Source: Scenedesmus sp. PABB004 (lineage: Eukaryota). Taken from it: DNA of 64,000 nucleotides. The stretch is taken from contig JABVCE010000023.1 in assembly GCA_014905635.1 (NCBI GenBank), positions 310,001 to 374,000 of the forward strand, read 5' to 3'. The notes below the pieces were generated by a model that made no database searches, was not told the origin of the DNA, and saw nothing but the letters and a program-made list of their open reading frames with translations. Shown here one piece after another: positions 2,397-64,000 of this stretch. The position numbers were made by a program, and so were the translations under genes. Numbering within the stretch: position 1 is the first letter of the stretch; every line of letters starts with the position of its first letter.

Positions 2397-5366
2397 ATGG
2401 CCGCTGTCGCGGCCGGCGGGGCCCACTGGGCCGGCGCGCCCGGCGCCGGGCGCGCGGGCGCGCTGCGGCGCCGCGCGGCGCCGTGGCTGGTGCCGCCGCT
2501 GCTGCTGCTGCTGATGATGATGATGATGCGCCTGGCGGCCGCGGCGCCGGCTGGCGGCGACGCCGCCGTCGCCTACATCGGCGGCGGCTCGCCGACGACG
2601 CTGGTGGAGGCGCTGCAGAACTCGACCGTGTCGCGCATCGAGCTGCTCGGCGACTATGACGCCGGGCCGGAGCTCGCGCCGTACCAGGGGCGCGCGGTCA
2701 ACATCACGCGGTGCGCGGCGCGGCGCGCGCGCGCAGCCGCGGCGGCGGCGACCGCGGCCGGCGCCGGCGCCGGCGGCGGCGCCCGCGCCTCACCCCGGAA
2801 CTCGCGCGCCGCCGCCGCCGCCCCCGCCCGCGCCGGCGCACCAGGAATGTGACCATCTCGGCCGCGCCCGGCGCCGTGTGGCCGCAGCTGGACCTCGGCT
2901 TTGCGTGGGAGGCGGTGGAGCTGTGCGCGCGCTGCGTGTTTGCCTTTGACGGCGCCTTTGCGGTCGCGAACGAGCGGCGGGGGACCAACCCGAGCTTCGA
3001 CCTTTTTGTGGGCCGCCCCGGCAGCGTGCTGCTCGCGCGCGACATGTACCGCCTGCGCCTCGCGTGCACGCCCGTGAGCGAGAGCGCCGAGACGCTGCTC
3101 CTGCTGCCGCGCAGCCCGCTGCTGCCGGGCGCGGCGGCGCGGCAGGACGTCGGCCGCGCCAACGTGAGCTACCGCGGCCGCGACTACCCGGACTCGCTGC
3201 TGCTGACCGACGTCACGTTCGACGTGGCCGCCACGCACGACGAGGGCCGAGGCATGCGGGGCGGGTACGCGCAGGGCCTCACCAACGTCGTGCGCCTCTG
3301 CCAGCGCACCGCGACGCCCGAGTGCCTGCTCTCGCGCGGCAGCGAGGTCTGCATCGTGGAGCTCATGGACGCGGCGCTCGCAGAGGCGGCCGCCGCCCCG
3401 CCGCCCCGCGGCCTGGCGCCGGGCGCGCTCGGCGCCGCGATCGCCGTGCCGCTCGCCGCCGGTGCGCGCGCCGCCGGCGCCCGCGCCCGCGCCCGCCCGC
3501 GCCCGCCTGCCGCCCGCCGGTGCGCTCACCCCGCGCACGCCCCCCGCGCCGCCCGCGCGCTGCAGTGGCGCTGCTGGGCGCGGCGCTGCTGGTCTGGCGC
3601 CGCCGCCGGCGGGCCGCGAGCCCCGAGCAGAAGCGCTCCGGCTTTGGCCCCATGCAGCGCGCGCGCAGCATGCCGGGGCGCACGAGCAGGGGCTCCAGCG
3701 GCCTGGGCCGCGACGACAGCGGCGGGTGAGGCCGCGCAGGGGCGCGCTGCCGCGCCAGGCCGCCCGCTCCAGCTGCTCACGCGCCGCGCCGCGCCGCGCC
3801 GCGCCGCCGTGCCCCGGCCCGCCAGCGACCTGACCTGGGCGGGCAAGGGCTGGGAGCTGTACGACAGCTTCTGCTCCCCGATGCTGCCGGAGGGCAGCGA
3901 GCGCTGCGACGTTGAGCTCGGTGCGCGGCGCGCCCGCGCGGGGCCGGGCCGGGCGAGCGCGATGCCGACGCACGCCCCCGCGCGCGCCGCAGCCCTCAAT
4001 CCCGCCCGCGCCCGCGCCGCGCTGCGCCGCAGGCGAGCTGATCGGCACCGGCGCGTACGGGCGCGTGTATCGCGCGCGCTGGCGTGGCGGCGACGTGGCG
4101 GTCAAGTGCATGGAGCACGACGCCGCGGCGGTGGCGAGCGTCGCGAACGAGGTGGGCGCGGCGCCCTCGCCGCGCGCGCGCACACGCGCCGGCAGCGCCC
4201 GCGCCGCGCCGCGCCCGTGCCCGCGGCGCTGCGCTGCGCGCCCTGCGCCGCGTCGACCGCGCCGCGCCGCGCGCGCGCCCCGCGCAACCCAGGTGCACAT
4301 CGTGATGAGCTTTGCCAGCCCCTACATCGTGCGCGCGTACGCGTGCTACACCTTTGTGCGCACCTGCGCCAACGACTCGAGCGGGGACGAGTACTCCATC
4401 CTCGCCGCGCCCGGGCCGCCGGGCGCGTACGGCGGCTACGGCGGCCTCGGCGGCGGCGCGCCGCTCGCGCCGCGGCTGTCCAGCTTCTCGGGCGCGCTCA
4501 ACCTGGGGCGCGTCATGGAGGGCGCGCTGGCGGGCGGCGCGGCGGCGCTGCCGCCCACGCGCAGCAGCGGCCCGGAGGCCGAGCTCGCGCGGCTGGGCAC
4601 GCTGTCGGGCAGCGGCGGGCTGGAGACCGCGAGCGGCATGCACAGCAGCCGCTCCTCGGGCGGCCGCGCCGCGGCGGCGGACGGGGTGAGCATGTACGCG
4701 ACGTGGCTGGTGCAGGAGCTGTGCGACCGGGGGACGCTGCGGGGCTACGTAGCGCGGTGAGCGCGCCGCCGCGCCGCGCGCGCGCACGGGCGACGCCCCG
4801 CGGCCGCCGCCCGACCGCCGCCGCCTGGCCGCCGCCGCCCGACCGCCGCCGCCGCCACGGCGCGCCGCGCGTCGCGCAGGTGCGACCTGCCCGCGCGCGT
4901 CGGCCACGAGCCCGCCGCGCAGCGCCAGCTGCTGCTGCTGCTGCTCGACACGGCGCGGGGGCTGGCGGCGCTGCACGCGCGCAACGTGGTGCACGGCGAC
5001 CTCTGCGGCCGCAACGTGCTCGTCACGTCGGACGCCGACGCGCCGTGGGGCGTGCGCGCGCTCATCAGCGACCTGGGGCTCAGCCGGGGCCTGCAGATCA
5101 ACAAGACCCACCACTCGACCGCCACGCTCGGCACGATCAGCCACCAGGCGCCCGAGCTGCTGCGCTACGGCCGCCTCGGCACCGCGGCGGACGTGTACGC
5201 GTGGGCCATCACCGCGTGGGAGCTCTGGACCGGGCTCGACGCGTTCAGCAAGCTCAGCTACGGCCAGTTCTTCCAGGTCGTGGTGCTGCAGGACATACGG
5301 CCGCTGCCGCCCGCAGACATGGCGCACGACTACGCCACACTCATCGCGCACGCATGGCAAGCCGCC

Positions 5367-5397
<31 letters not shown>

Positions 5398-5937
5398 GCA
5401 GCGCCGCGCCGCGCAGCGCCGCCGCCGCGCAGCGCCGCCGCCGCTGAGCGCCCGAACCGCGGCCGCCGCCGCAGGGCGACCGACCCCAGCGACCGGCCCA
5501 CCATGGTGGAGGTGATTGAGGCCCTGGAGCACTGCGTCCGCGTGCGCACCGGCGAGCCACAGGGCGGCGCGCCGCCCGCGCCGCCCGCGCTGCTGCTGCG
5601 CACGCCGCCGGCGCGGCACGCCTGGGCCGTGCGCGAGCAGGCGCCGCCGGCCGGGCCGCCGGCCGGGCGCGCGGTGCCGGCGGCTGCCGACGGCAGCACC
5701 CACAGCGCTGTGGGCGGCTACAGCAGCTCGCCGCCCCTGTCGTCCTACTTTGGCGCGCCTCCGGGGCCCCCTGCGGGCGCGGCGCCGGCGGCGGCAGACG
5801 CCGACGCCGCTGGCGGGCCAGGGCCCGCGTCGGACCAGGGCTCGCGCGAGCAGCTGCCCTGGCCCAGCCAAGGCGAGGGCGCCGCCGAGCAGTCCTGGAA
5901 CAGCCAGCTCGTCCAGCACGGCAACTGGTTTGTGTGA
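2397..5937 (+). CDS. Single-pass receptor-like protein kinase (TKL/MLK-like kinase domain, Cys-containing ectodomain), multi-exon
   Basis: N-terminal hydrophobic signal (LLLLLMMMMM), ectodomain, TM segment (GAAIAVPLAA..VALLGAALLVW RRRRR). Kinase motifs: GTGAYGRVY, VAVK, LVQELCDRG, HGDLCGRN, SDLGLS, HQAPE, DVYAWAI, W-ATDPSDRPTM. Stop TGA at 5935-5937. Confidence 0.85.
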
Positions 5938-6720: not shown

Positions 6721-8439
6721 TCAAGCCGCGCCGCCGCCGCCGCGCACGGCCTCCAGCACCGCGCTGAAGTCGTCGTCGCCGCGCCCCGCGCCGCGCGCGC
6801 GGACGTAGAGGTCGTTTGCCGCGCCGATCACGCCGAGCGGCTGCCCCGCCGCGTCGGCCGCGGCGAGCGCGAGGCGCAGGTCCTTCTGCTGGTGCTTGAG
6901 CGGGAAGGCGGTCGGGTACTTGCCCGCCGCCATGGCGGGGCCCTTGAGCGCGTACATCGGACACCTGGCGCGGCGCGGCGCGGCGGGGCGTGGGCGGGGC
7001 GCGCACCAGGGCGCCTGGTGGGGCGCGCGCACGCGGCGCGCGGGGCCCGGTCGCGCGGCGCGGCGTGTGCTGCGCCGCGGGCTCACGCGATGGCACCGAG
7101 GCCGACGACGTCAATTACGTCCTTTGACTCCAGGCCCAGCTGCGCGCGGGGGCGCCGCGCGCGCCGGCACCGCGCGTGGGCGGCGCCGCGCCGGCCGGCC
7201 GGCTGCCGCGCGCCGCGCTGCGCGCCCGCGCCCCCCGCCGCGCCTTGTCCGCGAGCGCTAGGCCCTCGGCGAAGCCCGCCATCTGCGCGCCCATGATGGC
7301 GTTGACCACGAGCTTCATGCGCGCGCCCGCGCCCACGGGGCCGAGGAAGAAGCTCGCCTTGCCCATCACGCCCAGCGGGCCGCCCGCAGCGGCGTACAGC
7401 GCCTCGTCGCCTGGCGGCGCGGCCGGCGCGCGGCGCGCGGCGCGGTCAGTCGCCCCCTGCAGGGCGAGGGGGCGCGCGCCGCGCCGCGCGCAGGCCTGCA
7501 CGCCGCCTGCGCCGCGCCGCCGCGCAGGCCTGCGTGCTGTGCTGCCGCGCCGCACCGGCGGTGAGGAAGATGAGCGCGCCCTGCTCCGCGGGGCCCTTGC
7601 TGCCAGACACGGGCGCCTCGAGGTACTGCGCGCCCGCCGCCCGCACCGCGCCCGCCACGGCGCCCGCGGTCGCGGGGTCGATGGTCGACACGTCGACGTA
7701 GCCCTTGCCCGGCGACAGGCCTGCGCGGCGGGCGCGCGCGCACGGCGTGCGCCGCCGCGCGGCGTGGTCACGCCCGCAGCCGCCGCGGCCGCAGCGCGGC
7801 GCGGCGCCCCGCCGGCGGCGGCCGCCCGGCCGCGCCGGCGCGCGCGCGCACCCTCGCACACGCCCCCCGGGCCGGTGGCGACCTCAAGCGCGGCGGGCGG
7901 GTCTGAGAGCATCGCAAACGTGATGTCCGCCGCGCGCGCCACGTCGGCGGGGCTCGCCGCGACGGCCGCGCCCGCAGCCCGGAGCGGCTCGCACTTGTCC
8001 GCGGAGCGGTTCCACACCACCACCTTGTACCCCGCCTTGACAAGGTTCAGCGCCTGGCACCACCGCGCGCGGGGCGGCCGCGGTCGCCGGCCGAGCGCGG
8101 GCGCGCGGCGCGCCCGCGGTGCCCCCGGCACCGCTTGCAGCCGCGCCGGCGGCGGCGCACCATGGGGACGCCCATGATGCCCATGCCCACGAAGCCCAGC
8201 GTGGTGGACCCGGGCTCCGCCGTTGGCAGGGCGGCGCGGCAGGCGGTGCGGCGGGCGCGGCGCGCCGCGAGGCGTGGCAGCCCAGCGCCCGGCCGGGCCG
8301 GGGCGCGAGCGGTGGCGCCGCGGCCTGGTGGCATAGCCGCGCTGATCACGGAGCGGTGCAGCACAGGCCGAACGCCGGCCTGCCCGCGCCGCTGCGCAAG
8401 AGCAGTGCCGCGCCTGCTGGCCAAGCTGCTCGCCGCCAT
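6721..8439 (-). CDS. GLYR: Glyoxylate/succinic semialdehyde reductase (beta-hydroxyacid dehydrogenase family), probably organelle-targeted
   Basis: Exons give LGFVGMGIMG, VVVWNRS, FAMLSDP, YVDVSTID, LEAPVSGSKGPAEQG, GARMKLVVN and FPLKHQQKDLRLAL, which are GLYR hallmarks. The start at 8439 is inferred; an Ala/Arg/Ser-rich transit-like N-terminus follows it. Confidence 0.9.
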
Positions 8440-8467
8440 TCGCGCTGGCTGCGCGGGGTCTACAATT

Positions 8468-9023: not shown

Positions 9024-9067
9024 CTCTCCCGGCCCCCTCCCGGCCCCCTCCCCGCCTTGACACAACC

Positions 9068-14630: not shown

Positions 14631-17600
14631 ATGGAGGTGCAGCGCAAGGTGAGGAGCCGGCGGCAGGCGGGGCCGGGGGCAGGCCGCCAGGCAGCACCCA
14701 CGCGCCGGCGCGGCGCGGGCAGCAGCAGGCGCCGCTGCTGCGCGACGGGCGCCGGGCGCGCGCCCGCCGCGGGCGCGTGCCGCCGGCCCTCCCCTCCCCT
14801 CTCCGGCCGGGCGCCGCCGCGACGCAGCGCGCCCACGGCCGCCCCCGCCGCCCGGCCCGCGCGCCGCGCCCCGCGCTGCGCGCCCCCCGCGCCCCACGCT
14901 GCGCCAGGTGTCCTACTTTTACGACGCCGAGCTGGGCGACTTTTACTACGGCCCCACGCACCCCATGAAGCCGCACCGCGTGCGCATGGCGCACGACCTC
15001 ATCGTGCGATACGACCTCTACGCACACCTCCAGGCGCGGCGGCGGCGCCACGCGCGGCGCCACGCGCGGCGCCACGCGGCGGCGGCGGCTGGGGGCCGGG
15101 GAGCAGGCCGGGCCAGGGCGGCGGCACGGCGACGGCAGGGCGCGCGCCGGCGGGCCGGCGGGCCCGCGCCCGACGCGCGCGGCCGCGCCGCCGCGCCGCG
15201 CCGCGCCGCGCAGGTGTTTACGCCTGTGCCGTGCCCGCTGGACGACATGTGCACCTTCCACAGCCGCGACTACCTGGACGCCCTGCGCAGCGTGGACCAG
15301 CCAAAGGCGCGCCGCGCCGCGCGCACGCGCGCGCGCGGGCCGCAGCGCGCCGGCGGGGCGGCCGCGCGGCCGCGCGGCCGCCGCAGCGCGCGCCGCCCCC
15401 GGCGTGGGCGCGCCCCGGCCGTGCCGAACGCCGCCCGCGCCGCCGACCGCCGCGCCCGCGCCCGCGCCGTGCCGCGTGGCGCAGGGCGACAAGCGCGCCG
15501 AGCGCGCGCAGGCGGAGCGGCTGAAGGGCACGTTCAACCTGGGCGTGGCCGACTGCCCCGTGTTTGCAAACATATTCAAGTACTGCCAGGTGGGTGTGTG
15601 TGTGGGTGTGGGTGGGTGGGTGTGGGGGGGGGGGGGGGCTGGGCGCGCACGCGACAGCGCGGCGCGCGCAGGCGCGGCGGCGCGGCAGGGGCAGGGGCAG
15701 GCGCACGCGCACACGCGCAAACGCCGGCGCGGCGGGCGCGCGGCGCCTGCGCGCGGAACCAGCAGCCCCCCGCACGCGTCCCGCGCCGCGCCGCGCCGCG
15801 CCGCGCCGCGCAGGCCTACACGGGCGCCTCGATCGGTGCGGCGGTGCAGCTCAACTACGGCCAGGCCGACATTTGCATCAACTGGGCGGGCGGCCTGCAC
15901 CATGCGCGCAAGGGCCGGGTGCGCCCTCCGCGCGGCGCGCGGCGCGCGCGGGGCTGCGTCGCGCGCCGCCGCCGCCGCGGCCGCGCCCAGCCCTTCGTCC
16001 CTCCCCCGGCGCCCCGCTCAACCGCCCCGTCGCCCCTCCACACCCCTCTCCCTCCACACACACACCCTCCTGCCCTCCCCCCCCCCCCCACACACACACA
16101 CACACACACACGCCCGTGCCCCCCCTCCCCCCCCCCCACACACACACGCACGCACGCACACGCCCGTGCCCCTCCCCCCCCCCCCCAAGGCGAGCGGGTT
16201 CTGCTACATCAACGACATCGTGCTCGCCATACTCGAGCTGCTCAAGTACCACGCGCGGTGAGACACGCGGGGCGGGGCTGTGGGGCTGGCTGGGGCTGTG
16301 TGGGCGCGTGTGGGTGGCTGGCTGGCTGGGGGAGTGGGCGGGTTGTGGGCGCGTGGGCGTGTGTGCGTGTGGGCGTGGGTGTGAGGGTGTGGTGGGGTGT
16401 GGTGGTGTGAGGGTGTGTGTGTGTGGGGGAGAGGGGGGGGGGTCGTTGCTGGCCTGCGTCGGGGGCTGGCGACGCGGGCGGCGCGCGCCCGGCCGCGGCG
16501 CCCGCTCACGCGCCCGCCCGCCCACCGCCCCCGCCGCACCGCCCCTGTGTGCCCCGCCGCGCCGCAGCGTGCTGTACCTCGACATCGACGTCCACCACGG
16601 CGACGGCGTGGAGGAGGCCTTCTACACCACCGGTGGGGGGGGGGGGGGCGGCTGCTCGCTGCCTCGCTGCCTCGCCCTCTCCCTCTCCCTCACACCCCCT
16701 CTCTCTCCCTCACCCTCTCCTCTCCTTCACCCCTCTCCTTCCCTCCCTCGTTCGCCCCCACCCGCTCCTCCCTCTCCTCCCGCTCCTCTCCATCGCCCCT
16801 CTCCCTCGCTCTGAACCCTCACCCCGCCCCCCCTAAAACCCCGCGCCGCCCGCGTCGCGCCAGACCGCGTGCTGACGGTGTCGTTCCACAAGTACGACGG
16901 CGAGTTTTTCCCCGGCACGGGCGACCTCACCGAGGTCGGCGCCGGCCCCGGCACGCACTACGCGGTCAACGTGCCCCTCGCGGTGCGCGCCCGGGCGCGC
17001 CCCGCGCGGACGTGTGCACGCCCGCGCAAACGCGCGCACGCCACGCGCCGGCCCTCGTCCCCACACACCACACAGCACACCCACACGCCCACACACATCC
17101 CACACAACACGCCCACACACACCCACACACGCCCCCCCCCCCACACACACACACACCCCGACACCCCCCCACACACACACACACGCCCACCCACCCCCCA
17201 GGACGGCCTGGACGACGCGTCGTTTGCTGGGCTGTTCACGCCCATCATGGACGCGGTCATGGCCAACTACCAGCCAGACGCCATCGTGCTGCAGAGCGGT
17301 GCGGGGACAGAAGGGGGGGGGGCAGAGAGGGGGGCGCGGCGCAGGGGGGGCTGCAGCCCAAGGGGGCCGCACGCGCGCCGCAGCGCGCAGGGGGCGGCGC
17401 GGCGCGGCGCGGGGCGGGGCGGGGCCGCGGCGCAGCGGCGCGCCGCCGCGTGCCGCCGCGTGCTGACGCGCGCCGCGCGCCGCGGCGCGGTGGCCAGGCG
17501 CCGACTCGCTGACGGGCGACCGGCTGGGCAAGTTCAACCTCACCATCCAGGGCCACGCCATGGTGCGCGCGCACGCGCGCGTGCTCACGCGCCCGCCCCC

Positions 17601-34517: not shown

Positions 34518-35151
34518 TCCGCCGTGGCCAGCCCGCACGCCGCCGCCAGCCCGCGCATCTCTGGCGGCAGCGCGTCGCCCGCGGCGGGCGGCAGCCCGCG
34601 CCTCGCGCTCGGCGGCGGTGCCGGGCCGCTCGGCGAGGCGCTCACGGGCGCGGTGCCGCTGGAGGCGCTGACGGGGCTGCGCCTGACCAAGCTGGGCAAG
34701 CACCAGAGCTTCATCCTGCAGGCCCTCAAGGACCAGGCGCGCGGCGGCGAGGGGGGCGCCGGGCGCGGCGCGGGGCGCTGCTGGCCGCGTGCGCGCGCCG
34801 TGCTGAGCGCCGCCACCACCACGCCGCCGCCGCCGCCGCGCGCCGCCGCCGCCGCGCCGCCGCCGCCGCAGGCGAGCCGCTCGCCCGCGCCGGCGCGCGT
34901 GCCGCTGCGCGTGCAGGTGCACGACACGGGTACGTGGACGTTCAAGGGCATCGCCGGCGCGCACCCGGTCGTGCTGGTGCTGCCGAGCCGCCTCGCGGGG
35001 CGGCTCGAGGCGACGCCGCCCAAGCGGTCGAGCAAGGCCACGTGCGTCGCGCCCGGCGCGGGGCTGCTGGCCGAGCTGTGGGTTGAGGCGGTCAACCTCG
35101 ACACCCTGCTGCTCGACCCCACGCTCCTCGTCGCCGGCGCCGGCGCGCCGC

Positions 35152-47200: not shown

Positions 47201-50200
47201 CACTCGACCCGCCCGCCACGCGCGGCGCGCAGCGCCTCCACGCGCGCCTGCGGGGCCAGCGAGCGCGCAGCGCCGTGAGCGGGGCGGCCGCCGCCGGTCG
47301 CTGCCCCCCCCCCCCCCCCCGGCGTAGGGGGTGGCCGCGCACCTTGACAATGGCGGTCTTGCCCACGCCGCCGCCGCCCACGAGCAGCGCGGGCCGGCCT
47401 GCCGCCATGGCCGCCTGCAGCAGCGTGCCGTAGCGCACGGTGTCGGCGGTCGGCACCATGATGTCGTGGCTGGGCTCGGCCGGCCGGAAGGTGAACGCCG
47501 GCACGCGGCGCTCCCAGGGCACGAAGCACACCGACGACCTGCCGGCGGGCGCGGCATGCCCGGCGGTGGTGCCGTTGCGCGGCGGTGCCAGCACCGCGTC
47601 ACGCCCGGCCGCGCGGCGCGGGGCCGCAAGGGCGCGGCGCGCACCCGTCTGGGGCCGGGTCCAGGCAGTAGTCAAACACGCTGCCGGCGCCGGCCGGGAA
47701 GTTGGCGATGCCGTCAAACGCGGCCCGCACCGCGCCGTCCCAGCCGTCCCAGCAGCCCGCCGCCAGGCCGCCGCCGACGCCCCAGACCGCCGCGTGGGCA
47801 AAGACGTACTGCAGCAGCACGCGCTGGCGCTCGTCCAGGGCGGGGTCAAACAGCCCCGCGCCCCTGCGCGCGCGCCCGCGGGCGTCAGCGGCAGCGGCAG
47901 CGGCGGCGAGCCTCGGCCGAGGGCTGCGCGCATGCCGGCGCACCTCAGCGCGTCCGCCTGCGACTCGAACAGCGTCGTCACTGCCGCGAGCTGCGCGACG
48001 GGCACCGCCGGCAGCAGCGTCGTGCCGCGCTCCGCCACCCACTCCAGCAGGGGCGGCACGTGTGCCTCAAACAGACCCCAAAAGAAGTCGCGCACGTGCG
48101 CGAGCGCCTCGGGGCACTGCACAGGCAGCTGTTGCTGCGTGCTGCCTCCGACGCTGGCCGGCTCAAGCCCCACCGCCACCTCGGGCGCCAGGCTCGGCCC
48201 TGGCGCCGCCGCCGCTGCGCTGCCATCCCCGTCGGCTGCAGCGCCCGCCGCGCGCGCGAGCAGGCGGTCCAGCCAGGAGCGGACGAACGGGCGCCACCCG
48301 ACTGTGTGGGCCGGCACGTAGACCATCCCACACCTACGGTCACGCCCGCGGCGCTCAGCGTCTGCGCGGCGCGCGCCGCCCGCTGCCCCCCGCGCCCGCG
48401 CGCCGCCGCCGCGCCTGCTGACGGTCGCGGGCGAGGCGTGGGCCAGGTCCTCCACCTCGAACAGCACCCTCAGCCGCCGCCCGTCCAGCTTGATGCGCTC
48501 GCCGTTGGGCAGACAGAGCATGCGGTTGTCATCGAGCACTGCCCGGCGGCAGGCGTGGGCGGCCACGCCGCGGCGGTCAGCGACGCCGACGGCGCGGCGC
48601 GGGCGCGCGGTGGCCCCCGCGTCGCCGCGTCCCGCGACCCCCGCGTCCCCGCGTCCCGCGCGCACCGGTGTTGAGGTTTTCCACCCACAGCGAGTCCACG
48701 GGGCCGTCGCAGACGAGCCAGTGCACGTCGGGGGACACGTCCGCGACCGCGCCGCGCACGAGGCGCGGCAGCAGGCCGTCGGCCCAGTCGTGCGTGACGG
48801 CGCTGTACGCGCCAAAGAGCTGCGCGAGGGTGATGCTCTTGGGGTTGAGCACGTGCTCGTGCACACTATACCCTGGCATGCCGCCGCCGTCAGCGGCTTG
48901 GTTGGGTGCGCCGCCCGGCGCCGCGGCCCGCCCGAGCGCGGTCTCCGCGGCGCGCAGGCAGCTGCGGCACGCGCTCTTGCCGCCGCCTGCGCGCGCCGCG
49001 GCGGCCGGGGCGGGGTGGGGCCGGGCGCGCCGCCGCCGCCGCATAGCGCGCCGCGGCCGGCGCGGGGCCGCACCCGGCGGGCCGACCAGCATCACGCCGA
49101 AGCGCGCGCCCAGCGTGTCGTGCAGCTCCACCGCCTTGCCCAGGAGCGCGGGGTGCGCCTGCAGGCCCAGCGCGCCCGCCGCGCCAGCGAGCGCGGCGCG
49201 CAGGCCCGCCTGGTCGCGGCGCGGCGGCTGCGCGCCGGGGAAGAGGTCGCCCAGGATGGCCTCGAACAGCGCCGCGTCCTCGCTCAGCAGCTTGGGCAGG
49301 TTTGCGCCGCGCAGCGCGTCGAGAATGACGTGTTCCTCAGCCGCGCCGCGCGCGCCGCGCCGCGCCTCGCCCGCCATGGCCAGCACCGCCTTGAGCGCGC
49401 GCATGCCAAAGTCGTAGTGCGCCTGCTGCGAGAGCTGCTCGCCCGCGAGGCCGTAGGCCGCGACCACCTTGCGCGCCAGCCACGGCGCGGCGGTGAAGCC
49501 CTCGGCGAAGAGCAGCACCTCGGCGATGAGCGCGTGGTCGGGCAGCATCATCGCGACCGGGCGCAGCAGCACGCGCAGGTTGTCGGGCAGGTCGTGCCGC
49601 CCGCCGTACGCGCCGCCGCCGGGGTTCATCGTCACAAACACCCCCGCGCCGCGCTGCAGCGGCATCTCGCGCCCCTCGAACAGCAGACGGCCGAGCCCGC
49701 CCCGCAGCGCCGCCTGCAGCGCCGACAGCTGCTGCGCGACGACGCTCAGCACCTGCGCGGCCGGCCCCGTGGCGGCGTCGGCGGCGGCGGCGCGGGTGTG
49801 GGCGCCGCCCCCGCGCGCATGGGGCGCAGAGCGCGAGTGCGCCGCCCGCCATGCCCGCCGCCGCGCGCTTGCGCGTCCGCACCTCGAGCTCGAGGCGGTT
49901 GAACTCGTCCAGGCAGGCCCACGCGCCGCACTGGGCAAGGCCGGAGAAGACCCTGGCCGTGAACTGCCGGGCGGGGCGGCCAGGCGGGCGGCAACGCAGC
50001 GCGTGAGCCGCGCGAGCGCCGGGGCCTGAGCTGGGGGCGGCGCACGCGCGGCGGGCGGCGTGCGCGCGTCAAGGCGCACCCGGTGGTCGAGCCCCTCGCC
50101 GCAGTTGAAGACCACGCACTGCACGCCCAGCGCCTTGCCCAGGTCCTTCACGGTCTCGGTCTTGCCCGTGCCTGGCGGCGCGCGGCGGGTCGGGGCGCGG

Positions 50201-53200
50201 GCCCCCCGGGGCGCGGCCGCCGCCGGCGGCAGCGCCGCGCGCGGCGCCCCCCCCCCCCCCCCCGCGCGCGCGCACCCGCCGGCCCCGCCGGCGCGCCGCC
50301 GAGGCGCATGTGCAGCGCGCCGGTGAGCGTGACAAACGCGCGCTCCGTCACGGGCGTGATGACGAGGCGCGGCGCGGCGCCGAGGTACTCGTAGCCGTAG
50401 TCAAACCTGGCGGCGCCGGGCCGTAGGGTTTAGGCGGCAGCGGCGGCGGCGGCGGGGGCAGCGGCGGCGGTGATCAGCCGACCCTCGGCCCGCGGCGGCG
50501 CGGGAGCGGCTGTGCGTTTGCCCCCTGGCTGCCGGCGCGGCGGCAGCGCGCGCGCGTGCACACACGCACCTCGCTGAGAGCTGGCGCACGTGCACGGTGT
50601 CGGCGTCGGCGTCGTACTCGAATCGCAGCTGCAGCTGCCAGTCAAACTCGGAGGCGGCCGCCACGCGCGCGGCCATGAGCGCGGCGACGACGTCGCGCGC
50701 GTGCACGTCCGACGTGATGAGCCCGACCACCGACTGCGCACGCGGCCAGCCGGCCGGCCGGCGGCGGCGGCGGCGGCGGGGTTTGAGAGCTCTCGCGCGG
50801 CGCGGGAGCGTGGCGAGCGGGCCGCAGCGGCAGCGCAGCTGGCAGCCCCGCCCCGCGCGGGAGCCCACCTTGCGCTCCAGGTCGGTCAGCGGCCCGCGCA
50901 CGAGCTCCGTCAGCTCCTCCAGCTGCACCACGCAGCGCGCCGCGAGCGCCTGCAGCTGCGCCGCGGCGCCGGCGCCGCCGGGCGCGCCCGGCGCGCCGCC
51001 GCCCAGCGCCGCCTCGACCGCGGCGCACCAGTGGACGTTTGCGGCCAGCACTGCGAGCTGTGCGGGCTGCGCGAGCGCCCACCCGGCGCGCCCCGCGGCG
51101 CCGTAGTCGTGCAGGGCGCGCTTCGTGGCGGCCCTGAGCGTCAGCCGCATGTTGGCCTCCACGCTCGCCAGCCAGCTCTCCACCAGGCCCCGCGCCTGCG
51201 CGCGTGCGTGCGCGGGCGGCGCGGCTGCGTGCGCCGGGGCGGCGGCGCACGGCGGCCCGCCGGCGCGCCCCGCCATGGCCGGCGCGCCCGGCCGGCGCAC
51301 CTTGACGGGCCGGCTGAACGGCACGCGCTCGCCCTCCGCCGAGAGCATCGCGACGACGTCGTGCGGCGCCGCGGGCGCGCCGCCGGGCGGGTCGCCGAGC
51401 TCGAGGCGCGCGAGGCCGTCGAAGCACTTTGGCAGGTGGGGCTGCACCGCGGCGGGCGCCTTGGCCTGGCGCAGGATGTCGAGGAGCTCCTGGTTTGACA
51501 GGAAGTAGAAGCTGCGGGCGGCGCCAGACACACACACGGGTGGTGGTGGTGGTGGTGGTGGTGGTGTTGGTGGTGGTGGTGGTGGTGGTGGTGTGTGTAT
51601 GTGGGGGGGGGGGGGTGTTGAGAGGGGACGGGGGACGGGACGGCTCGGCGGCCCCCTGCTGGCGAGGCCGCCGCCGGCACGGCCGCTCGCGGCGCGTGGG
51701 CGCACAGAGAGCACACACGCACCGCGGCCACGCGGCGCGCTTGCTGTCCAGGTAGTCCTCCAGGCCCTTTGCCACCGCCTCCAGCGTGCCCGCGCACGCG
51801 GTCAGCGCCTCCAGCCGCCCGGGCGTGGTGCCGCACTGCGCACGCACGCGCGGCGCGGCCGCTCGGGCTGTGCTGCCCGCGCGCTGCGCGCGGCGCAGCC
51901 GGCGGCGCGCTCGCGCTCGGCGCGGCGCGGCGCCTCGCTCTCAGCCCGGCGCGGCGCGCCTGCAGGGCGTGTGGTCGGTCGTGCGCGGCGCGCATGACGT
52001 CTTTGAAGGTGCGGTCGACGCCGGCAAACGCGGCCGCCTCGCCGGGGAGCTGGCGCGTGATGTCGGGCGCCGACAGGACCGGCTCGAGCGACAGCCAGCC
52101 CGCCTGCACCGCCAGCCAGGCCTCCAGCGTCGCGCTGAAGAGGCGCAGCTGGCGGTCGAGGCGGTCCACCTCCGGCCTGGCGGCGTGGCGCGGGGGCAGC
52201 GCGGGCGGCAGCGCGGGCGGCAGCGCGGGGGCAGCGCGGGGGCAGCGTGGGCGGCAGCGCGGGGGTAGCGCGGGCGGCAGCGTGGGCGGCAGCGCGGGGG
52301 CAGCGTGGGCGGGGCGGGGGCCGCCGCGGCGGTGCGCGCGTGGGGCGGCACAGCGCGCAGCGCGCAGCACGCAGGGCATGGCGCGGTCGCGCGGCGCACT
52401 TGATGCCGCCGACGTAGCGCGAGGAGGCGATCGTGGCCAGCGTGATGCGGCTGTCCTCAGCGACCTGGCCGCGCGGGCGCGCGCGGCGCGCGCGGGCACG
52501 CGCGGGCGCGCAGGGCGGCGGCGGCCGGGCGCGCGCTCTGCGGAGGGCGCCCGCGCGGCGCGGGGGCGCGCGCCGGGCGGGCCGGCCACCGCTGAGCACA
52601 CGTGCTGCAGGTGCCGCAGGTCGCACACACACCTGCAGCACGTCATCCACCTCGCCCAGGATGAAGGTGTCCTTGAGCCCCCTGAACTGCCGCACGCTGA
52701 GCTCCACGCCGCGCCACTTGTCCGCGACCTGCGCCAGCAGCGCCTCGAGCGCCGCCTCCTGCGTGGCCTCGTTGCTGATGGCGGCGATTCGCTCGGTGTG
52801 GTCCAACACCTGGCGGCGGTCGTGCAGGGGGGGGGGGATCAGGCGCACTCGCGGCGCCCCGCCCCTCCCAACAGGCCAGGCGGCAGCGCTGGCCCGCCCA
52901 CCTGCATGTCCAGCAGCGTGGCGACGCTGGTCGCAGCGCCCGGCGATCGGTCGACGTGGCGGCCCAGCAGGTCCGCGACCGCCGCCCAGTGGCGCTCGCG
53001 CAGCTGCGGGTTGTGCAGGTGCATCACGGGGCCCAGCATGGCCTGCGCGCGCCAGGCGGACGAGGAGGAGCCAGGGTGGGTGAGCGACGTGGGCGGGCGC
53101 CAGGGGCAGGGGCGGCTGCCTCGGACGCGCGGCGGCCGGCGGCGCAGCCAGCCGGCGGCGCGCCTGCCACTGCGCGACGCTCTCGCGCAGGCGCGGCACC

Positions 53201-56200
53201 AGCGCGTTGGGCGGCAGCCCGCGCTCCAAGCGGTGCGCCTGGCGGCTGAGCCGGTCGACCTGCGGCGGGCGGGCGGGCGCGCGGCGCGGCGCGCGGCTCG
53301 CGCGCGGCTCGCGCGCGGCTGCGGTGGCGGGGCTGCCGCCGCACGCCTGCCGTGTGCCCCAGCGCCGCACCGTGTCCTGCATGGCCAGCACGTCCAGCTC
53401 GAAGAACGGCGCGGCCAGCCAGTCGGCCGTGGCGGCCGCCCAGTCGCGCTGCGCGGACCAGAGCAGGTGCTTGAGCTCGACGTCCTCCGCCAGCGCTTCC
53501 AGCTCGGCGAGCGCGAGCGGCGCGCCGCCGCAGCGCACGGCGAGCCCGCTGATGCGTGCCGCGGTCGCCTGGTGCGCGGCGACCTGCGCCATCAGCGCGC
53601 CCGTGGCGGCGATGACGGCGTCAACGTCGGCCGCCTCCCGCAGCAGGCCCTCGTCCTGCTCCGCCAGGCGCAGCGCCGACACCTCCCTGGCCAGCGCGTC
53701 GCCCTGCGCCTGCAGCTGCGAGAGGAACGCGGCCGCGTGCCGGTCGCGCGCCGCGTCGGCCGCCCACGCCGCGTCGCGCAGCGCGGCGTAGTCCAGCTCC
53801 ACGCAGCGCGCCGCCGCGACCTCCTCCTCGGGCGCGGGGACGCCAAACTCGGCCAGCAGGTCGTAGTGCGCCGACACCTGGCGCGACGCGGCGGCGGCGG
53901 CGGCAGGCTTTCAGCCCGGAGCACACCCCGCCCGCCCGCCCGCCCCGCGTCGGGCGCACCGCATCAAACTCTGCGTCCAGGCCCGGCCGCGCCGCCTCGA
54001 CCTCGGCAAGCAGCGATACGTGCGCCACAAACTCGTCGGGGCTGCCCGGCGGCGCGGCGATCGCCTCGCGCAGGCCCCGCACGCGGGCGACAAAGCGCGT
54101 GCACGCGCCCGCCGCCAGGCGCGGCAGCAGGCGCGCCAGCTCCTCCAGGCAGCGCGCCGGCGACGGCCGCAGCGCCGCGGCGAGCTGGCCCAGGCCCACC
54201 TCCAGAACGCCCACCGACCTGCGGGCGTGCGCGGCGGCGGCGGCGGCGGCGGCGGTGAGGCGCGCCCGCGCGACGGCCAGGCGCCCAGCCGCACGGCGGG
54301 GCTGACATTGTGGGCGGGATGGCCTCGACGTCCGCGAGCTGCTGCCGGCTCGACACCAGCAGCCCGCGCAGGCCCTCCAGCCCCAGCCGCCCCGCCGCCA
54401 CGTCGGCCGCCACCGCGTCGGCGCTGAAGCCCCGGCTGGCGGCGACCATGGCCCTGAAGCGCTCAAAGCCACCGGCGCACCGCTCGGCGGCCGCCAGGCC
54501 GCGCGCGAGCGCAGACGCGAGCGCGTCGCCGGCGGCCTCAAAGTCGGCGCCCAGCAGGGACGGCAGCCGGCCCTCGGCAGCGCCGCGGCCGCCGTCGGGC
54601 GGCGCCTCGATGAGGCCGCGCAGCGCTGGGTGCGCCGTCAGGCACGGCACGCCCCGCGCCAGCGCGACGACGCCGCGCAGCCAGGCGGCCAGCGCGTCGT
54701 CAAATGCGCGCGGCGCCGGCGACAGCAGCAGCGCATCGCGCCGCGGCTCCAGCAGCACCTCCAGCTGCAGCACCGCGTGCGCGCCGCTCGCGCCGCCGGC
54801 GGGCGCCGCCGCCGGCTCGGCCGCGCCCGTGCCCGCGCCGCCGCCGGCGGGCGCGCAGCCGCTGAGCGCGGCGTGCATCACGCGCAGGGAGCCCGCCACT
54901 GCGCTGTGCACCGCGTCTGCCAGCATGCAGTCCAGCAGCCCCACAAAGGCCGCCAGGCGCCGCCGCTCGCTGCGCTTCGCGGCCTGCATCGTGAAGGAGT
55001 CGGTGCCTGGGCGGATCGCCCCGCCGCCGCCGCCGGCCGCGGCCGCGCCGGCCCGGCGCGCCGGCGTGGCCGCGCGGGCGTCTGCATCGCTGGCGGCGGA
55101 CGTGCGGCGCAGGCTGCGCCGCGGGCGCACGGCGGTGGCGGCGGCGCGGCGTCAGCGTGTGCGCAGATGCGGTGCTGCGTGTGCGGTGCCTCGCTGGGGC
55201 CGCGCGTCTCGGCGGCGCACCTCGCCAGCGCCGCGTCAGGGCCGGCCGCCGGCGCTGCACCGACGAGCTGCTGCTCCAGCGCCGCCACCGCGCCCTCGCA
55301 CGCCGCCGTGGCCGTGGCAACGACGCGGGCGGCCACGCCCACGAGCTGCTCCTGCGCCGCCGCGAGCCGCGCCGTGTGTGCCTCCGCAAAGCCCTCCAGG
55401 GTGGTCGGCCGGCCCGCCTCGAGGCAGCACAGCTGCTGGCCCTCCACCTCCAGGCACGCAGCCCTGCGCGCGCACGGCCGGCGGGGGCACGGCGGCGTGA
55501 CGCCGGCGGCGCGCCGCCGAGCGGCGGCGGCGCAGCACCCGCGGCGGCCCCCCACGCACCGCACGCTGCGCAGCGCGTCCGCCAGCACCGGCTGCAGCGC
55601 GAACAGCCCCGCCTGCAGGCGCGCCGCGCTGTCGCTGGTCCGGGCGCTGCGCACGGCCCTGCGCCAGACCGCCAGCGCCTTCCACCGCCTGCGCGGGCGG
55701 CGGCGGCCGGCGCGTGCGGGCGGCGCCGGCGAGGCGGGCGCCGCCGCGGCGGCGGGGCTGCGCCCCGGCGCGCTGCGCCCTCGCTCCGCCCGCCCGCCCG
55801 CCCGCCCGCCCGCCCGCCCGCCCGCCGCCCGCCCGCCCGCCCGCCCGCCGCCCGCCCGCCCGGCCCGCGCACGCACCTGAAGTTCCGGAACACCGGCAGC
55901 CGCACGAGCTGCGTGTGCAGCAGCCACTCGCGCTGGAATGTCTCGAGGCTCACAAACTCGGGCGGCGCGCCGTCGGCCGCGTACTCGGTCACGCCGGCGG
56001 GGCTCATCGTCAGGTGCCGGCCCGCCGCCGCCGCCTGCGCGTGGCTGCAGACCGCGAGGTCAAACGGCTCCGGCGGCACCGCGCCCAGCGCCGCGGGGCG
56101 GAGGTAGACAAACTCGGCCGCCTCCGGGTGCGCCCGCATCGACGACACCAGCGCCGCCAGCACCTCGGCGCGCGCGCCCGCCGCCCCGCCAGGCGCGCCG

Positions 56201-56783
56201 GGCGGCGGCGGCGGCGGCGCTACGGCGGCCGCGGGCGCCGCGGCGGCGGGCGCGGCGCTGCTGGCGATGCCGGCGAGCAGCGCCGCCGGCGGCCGCTGCT
56301 GCTCCCGCGCGCGGATCTCCCGGGGCTGGGACGCGTGCTGGAACAGCTGCTGTGGCGCGCGCCCCGCGGCCAGGCCGGCCTGCAGCAGCCGCTGCGGCTG
56401 CTGCGGCGCGGCCGGCGCGGCAGCGTGCGCGGGCTCGACCAGCGCCGGCGGCCGCGCCAGCCGCAGCGCGCCGGGGAGCAGCGCCGGCTGCTGCTGCTGC
56501 CCCTGCTGCCGCTGCTGCGTGACCAGCCGTGGCTGGCCATCGCCGTCTTGCGGGGGCGTCTGCGAGCGCGCAGCGCGCGGGTCGCGTGGGCGCTCCGGAG
56601 CGGCGCGCTGCCCGGCGGCTGGTGGAAGGGCCGCTCCCGGGCAGCGGCGCCACACAGGCTGGGCGGCGGCGCTCCGCCGGCCGGCCGCGGCGACAGCGCG
56701 GCAGCGCGCGCGTGCCGCCGCACCTTCGTGCGCTGCAGGTACAGCCCCCTGCGCAGCGCCGCGCCGTCCACGCCATCCGGCAT
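38216..56783 (-). CDS. Axonemal dynein heavy chain (single-headed inner-arm type, DNAH6/DNAH1-like), many exons; start uncertain
   Basis: P1 [37 protein letters not shown]2 [32 protein letters not shown]3 [10 protein letters not shown]4 [13 protein letters not shown], stalk/MTBD (VVEPKRQ), [42 protein letters not shown] and C-terminal [18 protein letters not shown]. Stop at 38216-38218. Confidence 0.93.
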
Positions 56784-59974: not shown

Positions 59975-61779
59975 ATGCGGGCGGCGCTCGCGCTGCTGCT
60001 CGCCGGCGGCGCGCTGCTGCTCGCGGCGGCGCCGCGGCCGGCGCGCGGCTACGAGTACGAGTACGACGGCGGCTACGACGGTGAGACGCCGGCGGCGAGA
60101 CGCCGGCGGCGAGACGCCGGTGGCCGCACGGGAGGGGCGCGGCGCCGGCGCGCGCGCTGCAGCGCCAACCGTCCGCGCGCCGCCGCCGCTGCTCCCCGCG
60201 CCGCCGCGCCGCCAGGGCTGTACGGCGATGACATGTACTACGACTACCTGGACGACTACGGCTACTACGGCGACGACGCAGACAGGCGCGCGCGCGGCGG
60301 CGGGCGGCGCAGCGGAGCGGCGGCGGGCGGCAGAGCCGAGCGGCGGCGGCACGCGCGCGCGACGGCGGTGCAGCGGAGCGGAGCGGGTCGGCAGTCGCCT
60401 GGGCAGCTGTCCCGCGGGCAGCTGTCCCGCGGGCAGCTGTCCCGAGGGCGCCAGCCCTGCCGGCAGCGCCTGCAGCGCGCGCGAGGGCGCGCCCGCGCTC
60501 ACGCCCTGCTCGCCCTCCCTCTCCTCCCCTCCTGCCGCGCCGCGCAGCTACTACGAGGAGTACGGCTACTACGCCGACGACGACTTCTTCGGATACGACG
60601 GTGAGCGGGCAGCGCCCACCGGGCGGCGGCGCGGGCGCGGCCGCGGCCGCGCCGCAGCGCGGGGCGTGGGGGCGGTCGCGCCGCAGCGGGGGGCGCGCGG
60701 GCGGCAGCGCGGACGGGGGCGGCAGTGCGGGGGGCGTGGGCGGCTGCGCGCGCCGCCCGCGGCGCCGGCAGCGGCTCACCCCGCCCGCCCGCCCGCGCGC
60801 CCCGCCCGCCCGCGCCCGCGCCCGCGCGTGTGCAGACTACTACGACGAGTACTACGGTGACCCGCCGCGCGCGCGCTCGCGGTCGGGCGGCCAGCTGCTG
60901 CAGCAGCAGCAGCAGCGGCAGCGGCAGCAGCAGCCCGCCCGCCCGGCGGCCGCTCACGCCGCCGCCCGCCCCTGCCCCCGCCCCGCGCCGCCGGCCCCAC
61001 CCCCCGCAGACTACTACGACGACGTCGACGCGCCCGCCGACTGCAGCGTGGAGAAGGACGGGCGCGTGAAGCTCGCCAACGGCACCGCGCCGTGCGACAT
61101 CCGCATCACCGGCGTGGACAAGCAGGCCGACAAGCTCCCGGGCGGCCTCGACGGCGTGTACAAGCTCACCGGCTGCCACGACGGCCGGCCGAGCTACAAG
61201 CGCGCGGGGTCGCCGCCGGGCGAGGACCGCGTGCTGTGGTACAGCCGCGGCTTTGGCGACTGGGACGTGAGCAAGGGCCCCGAGCCGACCGAGGCCGACA
61301 TCCTCATGTACGGCGGCGACATCGAGCACCACCCGGTGCCGCTCTTCGTCAAGGCCTGGCACCTCGGCGGCGACCTCAAGTCGGGCGGCGGCGCCAACGC
61401 CAGCGCCGGCGGCAGCGACGACGTGTACGTCCCCGTGGCCGCGCGGCTGGCGTGCGCCGACGGCACGGTCGTCAAGCCGCCGCCGGTCAACCCCGCGGTG
61501 CAAAAGGCGGGCCCGATCCTAACCGACGCGGAGATCGAGGCCAAGTACAAGCTCATCTACGAAAAGTACGGCCGCCGCCCGGAGCCCAACCCGAGCCTCA
61601 ACTTTAGCTTTGTCATCATGCTCGTCATGGTCGGCCTCGCCATCGTGCTCGCCATCCCCTACGCCCTCGTGCGCAAGCGCGGCGGCGCGCCCGGGGCCAA
61701 GGGCTACCAGCCCGTCGCGACGAGCTTCGCGGCGGTCATCCAGCAGAGCAAGAAGAAGCAGAGCGGCCACGCGCACTGA
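59975..61779 (+). CDS. Type I membrane protein with a Tyr/Asp-rich N-terminus (5 exons), unknown function
   Basis: Exons 59975-60080, 60216-60285, 60548-60600, 60836-60856 and 61010-61779 splice in frame. They give a signal peptide, a Y/D-rich tract, a globular Cys-containing domain, a TM (FSFVIMLVMVGLAIVLAIPYALV) and a basic tail ending KKKQSGHAH*. Confidence 0.8.
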
Positions 61780-62234: not shown

Positions 62235-63085
62235 TCACCGCTGGCGCGGCGTCGTGCGCGGCGTGGTCTTGGGCGTGCTGCGGCCGCGCGCCGCGCTGCC
62301 GCCGCGCCGCGCGCCCGGGGCGCAGCCGCGGCGCTTGGGCTTTTTCTGGCGCAGCCGGCTGCTCAGCAGGTGCGCCAGCTTCAGCACGCCCGCGCCCAGC
62401 GCCAGCCCCACGCCGCCCGCCACGGTGGTCACCGTCACGCGCCGCGCGCGGCCGGGCAGCGCCGGCAGCGCCCCGGCGCCGCCGCCGCGGGCCGGCGGCC
62501 CTGCGAGCGCGTCGTCGCCGCCGGCGCCCGGCTGCGGCAGGCCGTGCAGGTCGCGTGCCGCGCTGTAGGGGCTCATGAGGCGGCGGAAGGTGACGTCCTC
62601 CGTCTCCTCGTCCGAGTAGCCCGCAATGTGCTCGCGCATGCGCCGCCTGCGGCGGCCGGCGGCAGCAGCAGCAGCGGGCGGCCGTGCCGTCGGCGCGCCC
62701 GCCCGCCCGCGCCGGGCGCGCCGGGCGCCGCCGCTGCGGGATCGCGGCGCCCACGGGGCGGGCCGTGGCCTGGGCGCGCAGGGGGCGGCGGGGCGCGCCT
62801 GTAATAGGCGTAGGCCGCGTCCTCCAGCTCCTCCGACATCTTGTCCTCGTCCGCGATGCTCCGCTCCACGATCCGCTTGCGCGCCTGCCGGAACTCGCGC
62901 GGCAGGTGGGCGATGGCCGCCTCGTAGAGCTCCAGCTCCTGCTCCGGGCTCAGCGGGCGCAGGTAGTCGTGCACGGCATCGAACACGCGCGTGCAGGCCC
63001 CCAGCACCGCGTGCACCGCGCCCGGCAGCAGCTCCGCGATGCGCGGCTCGGGCAGGTCGATCTTGAGCAGCGGGACGTAGACCAT
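62235..63085 (-). CDS. Hypothetical protein (helical acidic N-half, hydrophobic segment, basic C-tail), 2 exons
   Basis: MVYVPLLKIDLPEPRIAELL..ELEDAAYAYYR|RMREHIAGYSDEETEDVTFRRL..VAGGVGLALGAGVLKL..KKPKRR. Composition is coding-like; intron at 62647-62798; CCAAT upstream on the minus strand at ~63206. Confidence 0.6.
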
Positions 63086-63254
63086 CGCGCCGGCGCGCCG
63101 CCGCGCGGCGCGGCGGCGGCTGCTGCTGCGCTCGCAGAGCGCGGGGGTCTGGTGCCCGGTCCAGAGAGGTGCCAAGCGCTAGGGGGCCCTAGGGGGCCGG
63201 GGGTGATTGGACAAGGGCGCGGCGGCGGCGCGGCCGCGGTTCCGGCGCCCCCCG

Positions 63255-64000
63255 TCACGACGGCGCCGCGCCGCCGCAGGGCACCTGCGCGGCGGCGCCG
63301 GCGGGTCGGTGCTGCCACCGCCGCCGCGGCCGGCGCCGGCGCGGGGCGCGCACCAGCGGCAGGAGCTGGCGGTACAGCGGCGCCAGCACGCTCAGCCCGG
63401 GCGACAGGCTCTGCGCGCGGGGGCAGGGGTCGGGCGGCGGCCGGCGTGCGGCGTGCGGCAAGCCCCGCCGCGAGCCGACCGGCGCGCGCGGCGCGCGAGC
63501 GGGCCGCAAAGCCGTGCGCGGCGGCGGCGCCGCCGCCGCACCGGAAAGGCGAGCGCGATCTCCTCGCCCGTGTGGAGCAGGAACGCGAGGTGCACGTGGA
63601 CGTTGGTGGTCGTCAGCGTCTGCGCGGGCCGGCCGCGCGCGGCGGCGGCGGCGGCGGCTGGGCCCCGGCGCGTGCGGGCGCCGGCGGCGGGCGGGCGCCG
63701 GTGCGTGCGGGCAAGCGCGGGCGGGCGCGGGGGCGCGGCGGCTCGCCTCGTGCACGAACGCGCTGTGCAGGTCCGCCATGTCCAGGAACCGCGCCGCCCG
63801 CCCGCCCCAGCGCCGCCGCGAGGCCAGCAGCACGCCCACGCCCGCGAGCACGACGACCGACTCTGCGCGCCGCGCGGCGCGGCGGCAGGCACGCTCCCCA
63901 GGTGGCGGCGCCGCAGGAGCGCGCCGAGCGCAGCAGGGCGTGCTGCCGCGTGCCGCACCCGACGTGACCTCGCGCGCGGCGGCCCAGCCCGCGAGCAGCG
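63255..64000 (-). CDS. GPI-GlcNAc transferase subunit H (PIG-H)-like, 5' part outside the window
   Basis: Spliced exons read ESVVVLAGVGVLL..RFLDMADLHSAFVHE|TLTTTNVHVHLAFLL..EEIALAFP|SLSPGLSVLAPLYRQL. This fits the PIG-H pattern ES.lvi.g.G.q...rFi......i.ne....yL.......vvFp.l.P. Confidence 0.65.
   Translation of the reverse strand, partial: LLAGWAAAREVTSGAARGSTPCCARRAPAAPPPGERACRRAARRAESVVVLAGVGVLLASRRRWGGRAARFLDMADLHSAFVHEASRRAPAPARACPHAPAPARRRRPHAPGPSRRRRRRARPARADADDHQRPRAPRVPAPHGRGDRARLSGAAAAPPPRTALRPARAPRAPVGSRRGLPHAARRPPPDPCPRAQSLSPGLSVLAPLYRQLLPLVRAPRRRRPRRRWQHRPAGAAAQVPCGGAAPS

Follow-up and report, generated by a model that had tools for sequence, protein, structure and literature searches.

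Predicted GC-AG introns make up about a fifth of the introns in a G+C-rich nuclear stretch of the green alga Scenedesmus sp. PABB004

Genes and GC-AG introns of the window

The window analysed in this work is a stretch of 64,000 nucleotides (nt) of contig JABVCE010000023.1 of Scenedesmus sp. PABB004, and its subject is the GC-AG introns predicted there, i.e. introns which begin with GC and end with AG. The genes, among them those for a class I histone deacetylase (HDAC), a cyclic-nucleotide-binding K+ channel and an axonemal dynein heavy chain, were mapped by a Pfam scan which took in all 577 stop-to-stop frames with a length of 50 amino acids or more, and are given together with the introns in Table 1. 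The DNA of the window is nuclear and comes from a green alga; the deacetylase and the channel have their best homologs in Sphaeropleales and other Chlorophyceae. The G+C content is 79-80% over the 64 kb and stays within 76-81% in each bin of 4 kb, third codon positions of coding sequence are 96% G+C, and T accounts for 7% of intron bases. The plus strand holds 13473 GC and 2266 GT dinucleotides, which makes GC about six times commoner. Since GC is so abundant that an AG^GC is present almost anywhere (a caret marks a splice border throughout), a claim of GC donors needed a real test. If the whole genome resembles the window, it lies at or near the eukaryotic G+C record.

The initial annotation had listed twenty-one GC donors. 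All 21 positions carry GC, in the context AG^GCGCG at 18, AG^GCGAG at two and TG^GCAAG at one (5357). Every one of them was recovered by a gene finder with a 1% prior for GC donors, and 12 (15034, 15307, 17846, 18115, 43514, 44126, 48414, 51959, 53163, 23673, 24708 and 25912) are also the majority choices of a motif-blind spliced alignment. The observation is slightly extended by two sites, 46333 (minus) and 32635 (plus). All 23 well-supported introns start with GC and end with AG, acceptors being constrained to AG in both the aligner and the gene finder. A continuous conserved protein is restored at 13 junctions by spliced alignment (11-15 homologs each) and at 5357 by reading; at four others (7243, 27419, 63746, 34737) the match to a domain or homolog stops just where the exon does, as seen for the domains in a Pfam scan of 54 predicted exons taken one by one, and for the remaining five (18449, 29615, 32635, 60286, 62798) coding potential is the evidence.

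Table 1. Predicted genes and GC-AG introns of the window, in order of position. Nats give the ab initio support; homolog fractions come from spliced alignment, and junction scores from a junction finder on tblastn cores.
Feature	Position	Strand	Donor	Evidence and remarks
HSP70 gene	1-1613	-		Pfam
Ser/Thr-Tyr kinase gene		+		Pfam
GC-AG intron, kinase gene	5357..5474	+	TG^GCAAGC	Acceptor GCAG^G, phase 2; 17.9 nats over any GT; Pfam kinase profile positions 99-237 of 258 stop at exon end
Beta-hydroxyacid dehydrogenase gene (GLYR/HIBADH-like)		-		Pfam, PDB alignment
GC-AG intron, dehydrogenase gene	7140..7243	-	AAG^GCGCGG	26.5 nats; PDB alignment to 3doj_A reaches ...LADK at donor; Pfam NAD_binding_11 profile 1-30 stops at exon end
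LHC protein gene		+		Pfam
HDAC gene (class I histone deacetylase)	14631..18758	+		7 GT introns and 4-5 GC introns; by alignment of 15 homologs 7 GT introns, 3 GC introns plus 15307
GC-AG intron, HDAC	15034..15213	+	CAG^GCGCGG	14/14 homolog alignments; 18.4 nats
GC-AG intron, HDAC	15307..15484	+	AAG^GCGCGC	Donor in 8/14 alignments; 18.4 nats
GC-AG intron, HDAC	17846..17983	+	CAG^GCGCGC	10/14 alignments; 12.7 nats
GC-AG intron, HDAC	18115..18337	+	CAG^GCGCGC	GTAG acceptor; 11/14 alignments
Probable GC-AG intron, poorly conserved HDAC C-terminus	18449..18572	+	CAG^GCGCGC	1/7 alignments; 12.4 nats
Proteasome beta subunit gene		+		Pfam
RRM protein gene		-		Pfam
K+ channel gene (cyclic-nucleotide-binding, cNMP-gated)	22688..26651	-		GC donor in 3/10 homology-defined introns (11 homologs; 7 GT introns, 3 GC introns)
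GC-AG intron, channel gene	23542..23673	-	GAG^GCGCGG	5/11 homologs; Pfam match reaches last exon residue
GC-AG intron, channel gene	24574..24708	-	CAG^GCGCGC	11/11 homologs; Ion_trans_2 match stops at exon end
GC-AG intron, channel gene	25788..25912	-	GAG^GCGCGC	11/11 homologs; 45.4 nats
Lipoyl-domain protein gene	26977-27665	-		Pfam Biotin_lipoyl
GC-AG intron, lipoyl-domain gene	27304..27419	-	GAG^GCGAGC	5.0 nats over GT at 27402; Pfam Biotin_lipoyl profile 3-35 stops at last exon residue, 43-72 on next exon
Gene without Pfam family	28019-35369	+		Predicted, 1634 aa, 15 introns
Probable GC-AG intron, gene 28019-35369	29615..29792	+	CAG^GCGCGC	Ab initio only, 20.4 nats over GT
Probable GC-AG intron, absent from the initial annotation	32635..32777	+	CAG^GCGCGC	Ab initio only, 8.0 nats
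GC-AG intron closing 653-aa exon (32778-34736)	34737..34916	+	CAG^GCGCGC	13.2 nats
Axonemal dynein heavy chain gene	38216..56783	-		About 47 introns; Pfam, spliced alignment, ab initio model 4300 aa; by alignment of 13 homologs 34 GT and 6 GC introns (majority-supported, 40 introns after removal of two artefacts)
GC-AG intron, dynein	43394..43514	-	CAG^GCGCGG	10/11 homologs; junction score 186.0 vs best GT 148.8
GC-AG intron, dynein	44020..44126	-	CAG^GCGCGC	11/12 homologs; 108.3 vs best GT 72.2; 35.2 nats
GC-AG intron, dynein, absent from the initial annotation	46215..46333	-	CAG^GCGCGT	11/13 homologs; 144.5 vs best GT 124.9
GC-AG intron, dynein	48334..48414	-	CAG^GCGCGG	GTAG acceptor; 13/13 homologs
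GC-AG intron, dynein	51836..51959	-	CAG^GCGCGC	7/8 homologs; 128.1 vs best GT 77.3
GC-AG intron, dynein	53043..53163	-	CAG^GCGCGC	4/6 spanning homologs; 90.2 vs best GT 75.0
UbiA prenyltransferase gene		+		Pfam
Probable GC-AG intron, gene 59975-61779	60286..60547	+	CAG^GCGCGC	Ab initio only, 15.7 nats
Probable GC-AG intron, gene 62235-63085	62647..62798	-	CAG^GCGCGC	Ab initio only, 15.5 nats
PIG-H-like protein gene		-		Pfam
GC-AG intron, PIG-H-like gene	63620..63746	-	GAG^GCGAGC	7.2 nats over GT at 63755; Pfam PIG-H profile 1-39 spans exon residues 1-38 up to donor

Two of these introns, as had been stated in the initial annotation, contain no GT at all. Upstream of the kinase intron 5357-5474 the first GT is met only at a distance of 74 nt, in conserved coding sequence; an in-frame TGA is found at 5445-5447, and excision joins LIAHAW to ATDPSDRPTM, restoring the junction W-ATDPSDRPTM. 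A PDB search with the 92-residue kinase exon downstream of this intron, which holds only about 20 kinase residues, gave chance-level matches (E >0.5). For the HDAC intron 15034-15213 the nearest upstream GT is 30 nt back, again in conserved coding sequence. In the ab initio set 6 of the 28 GC introns have no GT inside.

At some of the other junctions there is a choice of borders. The acceptor of the HDAC intron with its donor at 15307 is uncertain, the alignments being divided over four AG sites of which the gene finder takes the one at 15484. The donor 18115 has as rival a poor in-frame GT (CGC^GTGAAG) at 18121, 6 nt downstream, over which the GC is ahead by 4.6 nats despite its 1% prior. In the channel gene a second GC donor, 23664, lies 9 nt from 23673 and uses the same acceptor; it is chosen by another 5 of 11 homologs, and the motif AG^GCGCG is present only at 23673.

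The intron at 34737 closes an exon of 653 amino acids whose homologs, in a library of 1.8 billion representatives, amount to three weak matches, none of them crossing the intron. All three match the exon to its final residue (...HQSFILQALKDQ), and the match then stops before 34737. In these homologs (P0256, P0257 and P0258) the residues next to ...QAIK(D/H)Q are V-R or V-G, as would be expected if an intron beginning with GTGCG or GTGGG were read through. Judging from these proteins, relatives may have a GT donor at the position of the CAG^GCGCGC.

Frequency of GC donors

GC donors were counted in two ways. The first was a home-made local protein-to-genome spliced aligner (BLOSUM62, gap costs 11/1, minimum intron 40 nt, AG acceptors), which applies an identical penalty to GT and GC donors and holds no motif information; this full dynamic programme took over from an earlier junction finder on tblastn cores, which missed introns inside same-frame cores. 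In the dynein, HDAC and channel genes it defined 61 introns, 48 with GT and 13 with GC (21%, Clopper-Pearson 95% confidence interval 12-34%). Under a true rate of 1.2%, the probability of finding at least 13 GC donors among 61 is 4e-13.

All 13 of these donors read AG^GCGCG. The sense strands of the three genes hold 5865 GC dinucleotides, 182 of them after AG (3.1%) and 24 in the full motif. Among the 16 GC positions picked by a majority of alignments, only three lack the motif, namely the alternative 23664 and two artefacts in the dynein gene; among the 85 minority picks, which are noise, four follow AG and one has the full motif. Of the dynein artefacts, 45798 is a 93-nt in-frame insert of low complexity, rich in Ala and Gly (45706-45798, minus), which the homologs lack and aligners take for an intron, and 45181 stems from an apparent frameshift, the real donor probably being GCG^GTGCGC at 45155. 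In the conserved ...DEAMLG stretch of the same gene (45150-45270, minus) a +1 frame change is needed within a G run near 45203, which points to a genuine frameshift or to an error of 1 nt in the assembly.

Alignments were also run with other dinucleotides as decoys. For five homologs the scores are 4091/3932/4132/3849/3946 with GT only and 4266/4172/4323/4023/4134 with GT plus GC, the highest for all five; GT plus CG gives 4232/4106/4291/3999/4065, and the addition of GG, CC or GA scores lower. As the well-supported decoy donors cluster at the same places, introns lacking a usable GT exist there.

The second count was obtained by a home-made semi-Markov gene finder, consisting of a three-periodic second-order coding model, intron and background models and an acceptor matrix. 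The dynein gene (34 exons, 40 introns) was its sole training set, its donor matrix was built from GT donors only, and the 1% prior handicaps GC by 6.3 nats against GT. The output was 17 gene models, all open after splicing, 16 of which match the Pfam map in place and strand; the seventeenth (58659-58896, minus, 238 nt) is antisense to the UbiA gene and was dropped as spurious. The homology-derived structures of the HDAC and channel genes were repeated donor for donor. Permission of GC donors raised the Viterbi score by 339 nats, and the support of the listed sites over GT or no-intron alternatives within 300 nt ranged from 5.0 nats (27419) to 45.4 nats (25912).

In the raw output a GC donor was used by 29 of 140 introns, and by 28 of 138 once 45181 and the spurious model had been removed. 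Five further donors (5753, 30607, 35884, 41338 and 21287) were set aside for poor motifs and support below 5 nats, which leaves 23 of 133 (17%). Outside the dynein training gene the share is 17/87 (20%), and 12 of the 16 gene models have at least one GC donor. The double-digit percentage which had been proposed for this DNA is thus borne out by homology (13/61) and ab initio (23/133 to 28/138).

Only GT donors had been reported for the LHC and proteasome beta genes, and in the ab initio model their 4 and 6 introns, respectively, indeed all use GT. In the all-GT genes the Pfam coordinates of successive exons are contiguous, those of the proteasome subunit being 3-30, 34-64, 68-102, 107-153 and 156-184. 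Taking LHC, proteasome, HSP70 and UbiA together, none of 17 introns has a GC donor against 23 of 116 elsewhere (p = 0.04, or p = 0.13 without UbiA), a weak hint that GC donors are avoided in genes for which high expression is expected.

Two side observations concern other parts of the window. About 4 kb at 8200-12400 show no Pfam match or gene model on either strand, and long frames are open there in all six phases. Lipoyl domains normally carry a lipoylated lysine at the motif position; the lipoyl-domain protein of the window reads ...LLLE^VGTESLVEE at this place, and its domain may be non-lipoylated, to judge from the translation.

Splice-site anatomy and its explanation

The GT donors of the window read G^GTG(C/A)G(C/G), with G at -1 in 91%, at +3 in 96% and at +5 in 95% of cases and A at -2 in only 31%. 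The GC donors read (C)AG^GCGCG(C), which is the consensus of the GT donors with T changed to C at +2. In the motif-blind homology set the exon ends in AG (positions -2/-1) at all 13 GC donors and at 17 of the 48 GT donors (Fisher p = 1.8e-5). In acceptor, length and G+C content the two classes are alike: acceptors are (C/G)CAG^G in both, the median length is 126 nt for GC and 127 nt for GT introns (p = 0.71), and the G+C content is 88% and 87%, respectively. Two of the GC-AG introns have GTAG in place of the usual acceptor (18334-18337 and 48334-48337). Donors of the U12 type have the form (A/G)TATCCTT or similar, and no such donor was found among the well-supported GC introns, each of which reads GCGCG, GCGAG or GCAAG. 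An all-against-all blastn of the 138 predicted introns of this one window returned a single non-self match at E <= 1e-6, so that they do not form a repeated intron family of the introner type.

U1 small nuclear RNA (snRNA) pairs with donor positions -3 to +6, and GC-AG introns elsewhere offset the mismatch at +2 by a stronger match to the remaining consensus. We consider it very probable that the introns described here are ordinary U2-type GC-AG introns, which make up about a fifth of the introns in this green-algal nuclear DNA of 79-80% G+C as a by-product of its composition and are read by a canonical U1. The canonical 5' end of U1 snRNA would still recognise the GC donors; a C at +2 would cost one base pair, and extra pairs at -2 and -3 would repay it. 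A strong GC-biased mutation or fixation pressure would turn GT into GC wherever the rest of the donor is strong enough, and in about 80% of introns selection would keep the T at +2, though this base is rare elsewhere in them. As the pressure would act on otherwise strong donors, the frequency of GC donors would be a by-product of base composition and not a new mechanism, and since AG always stands at -2/-1 of GC donors, which is the classical compensation of a U1 mismatch, an ordinary spliceosome would suffice.

Several points weigh against this reading. We infer both the splicing at the GC donors, from DNA sequence, and the canonical state of U1 in Scenedesmus sp. PABB004. The share was estimated from one window, with homologs which are 30-65% identical to its proteins, and the apparent 1-nt frameshift in the dynein gene means that the assembly may contain errors. 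In the alignments the decoy dinucleotides each win 3-4 well-supported donors, all at the same introns without GT, so that alignment alone leaves the border uncertain by a few bases; GC is preferred to the dinucleotides next to it for its best score, for the motif common to these donors and for the acceptor AG. In the gene finder 14 decoys gain 37-234 nats (CG 234, CA 195) and take 2-33 introns each. A GT alternative comes within 5-8 nats at three of the listed sites (18115, 27419 and 63746), and four (18449, 29615, 60286 and 62798) were found by the ab initio model alone.

A different explanation, suggested in the initial annotation, is that the spliceosome has been retuned, with U1 snRNA variants or an altered recognition by U1-C, U6 or Prp8 reading GC at +1/+2 as a native class. 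A share of GC donors 10-20 times the usual 1.2% would fit it, as would the donor consensus of the species, GTGCG, which departs from GTAAGT at +3/+4. It is nevertheless unlikely: the AG at -2/-1, which 35% of GT donors and 13 of 13 with GC carry, would be needless if a U1 variant paired with the C at +2, and T at this position is still 4-5 times commoner than C though T is only 7% of intron bases. No Rfam family reached its gathering score in the 64-kb window, and no snRNA gene lies there. We regard as similarly improbable a partial shift, in which the alga, its nuclear sequence being among the richest in G+C of any eukaryote, would have moved its 5' splice-site recognition partway to a dual GT/GC code in ordinary, non-repetitive introns, by a U1 variant or by leaning more on exon-side AG and U6/U5 contacts, and highly expressed genes would have been kept on GT for efficiency.

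It is also conceivable that the borders are wrong, the true donors being nearby GT or other dinucleotides, or the excised segments in-frame inserts of low complexity, so that the count of GC is inflated. The sixfold excess of GC over GT dinucleotides invites such an error, two majority picks in the dynein gene were of this kind, decoys regain much of the gain in score, and the five weak donors of the gene finder stood less than 5 nats above any alternative. Nevertheless the 13 homology-defined donors all carry AG^GCGCG though the aligner is blind to it, two introns have no GT to offer, the best GT alternatives lose or insert conserved residues at a cost of 15-50 in score, and GT plus GC outscores every decoy, all of which makes this explanation very improbable. 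That the assembly miscalls T as C, or that the genes have decayed to pseudogenes whose splice sites are dead, is a most improbable explanation, though the apparent frameshift near 45203 might speak for it, as it would take more than 20 independent errors exactly at +2 and only after AG, in 17 gene models which all stay open after splicing with conserved domains intact.

Comparison with other GC-rich algae

GC-AG introns average 1.2% in 121 plant genomes (PMC6310983) and about 1% in human (PMC3167603), and the G+C content of splice sites is correlated with that of the genome (PMC7072748). In plants and animals such introns resemble those of the window in their dinucleotides, in the AG acceptor and in a stronger exon-side consensus as compensation, but their frequency is 15-20 times lower.

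Abundant GC-AG introns are already known from other GC-rich algae. In Micromonas pusilla CCMP1545, GC donors amount to 25.6% of the total, to 9.7% among regular introns and to 43.5% within introner elements; 79% of them belong to a repeated intron family, the introner element D-IE1, and they were found only after aligners permitted GC (van Baren et al. 2016, PMC4815162). This green alga shares with the window the double-digit share and the AG acceptor. The window differs in having no repeat family and about 17-21% GC donors in ordinary introns, and it is closest to Sphaeropleales, not to prasinophytes.

In the haptophyte Emiliania huxleyi a GC donor was reported at 56% of 241 curated junctions, with a GC/GT ratio of about 60/40, and the authors ascribe the shift from GT to GC to the genome G+C of 65% (Feldmesser et al. 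2014, PMC4028052). It too is a GC-rich alga with an unchanged acceptor, and its genes are mis-annotated by GT-only predictors. Its share of 56-60% at 65% G+C, compared with about 20% at 79-80% in the window, means that the share does not simply track G+C. For Aureococcus anophagefferens and Pelagomonas calceolata about 14-17% of introns are predicted to be GC-AG, which is ascribed to high G+C (bioRxiv 10.1101/2024.10.30.620910). The magnitude is similar to that of the window; these pelagophytes are however stramenopiles with 0.2-0.9 introns per gene, against 13 in the HDAC gene and about 47 in the dynein gene.

A literature search combining GC-AG with Chlorophyta, Chlamydomonas and genera of Sphaeropleales, in which supplements were not covered, found no chlorophycean report, and in a 2025 comparative paper on Sphaeropleales the words 'splice' and 'intron' are both absent. 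The novelty lies in the lineage and in the fact that ordinary introns, not repeat-borne ones, carry the GC donors.

Predictors and aligners restricted to GT-AG would mis-model about one intron in five here and so affect most genes with several introns, as is already documented for E. huxleyi and M. pusilla (PMC4028052, PMC4815162). Abundant GC donors reveal no new mechanism by themselves. Their strict requirement for AG is a clean natural test of the U1 pairing which a 5' splice site needs, and the window adds an alga of chlorophycean type to the short list of lineages with a composition-driven, double-digit share of GC donors.

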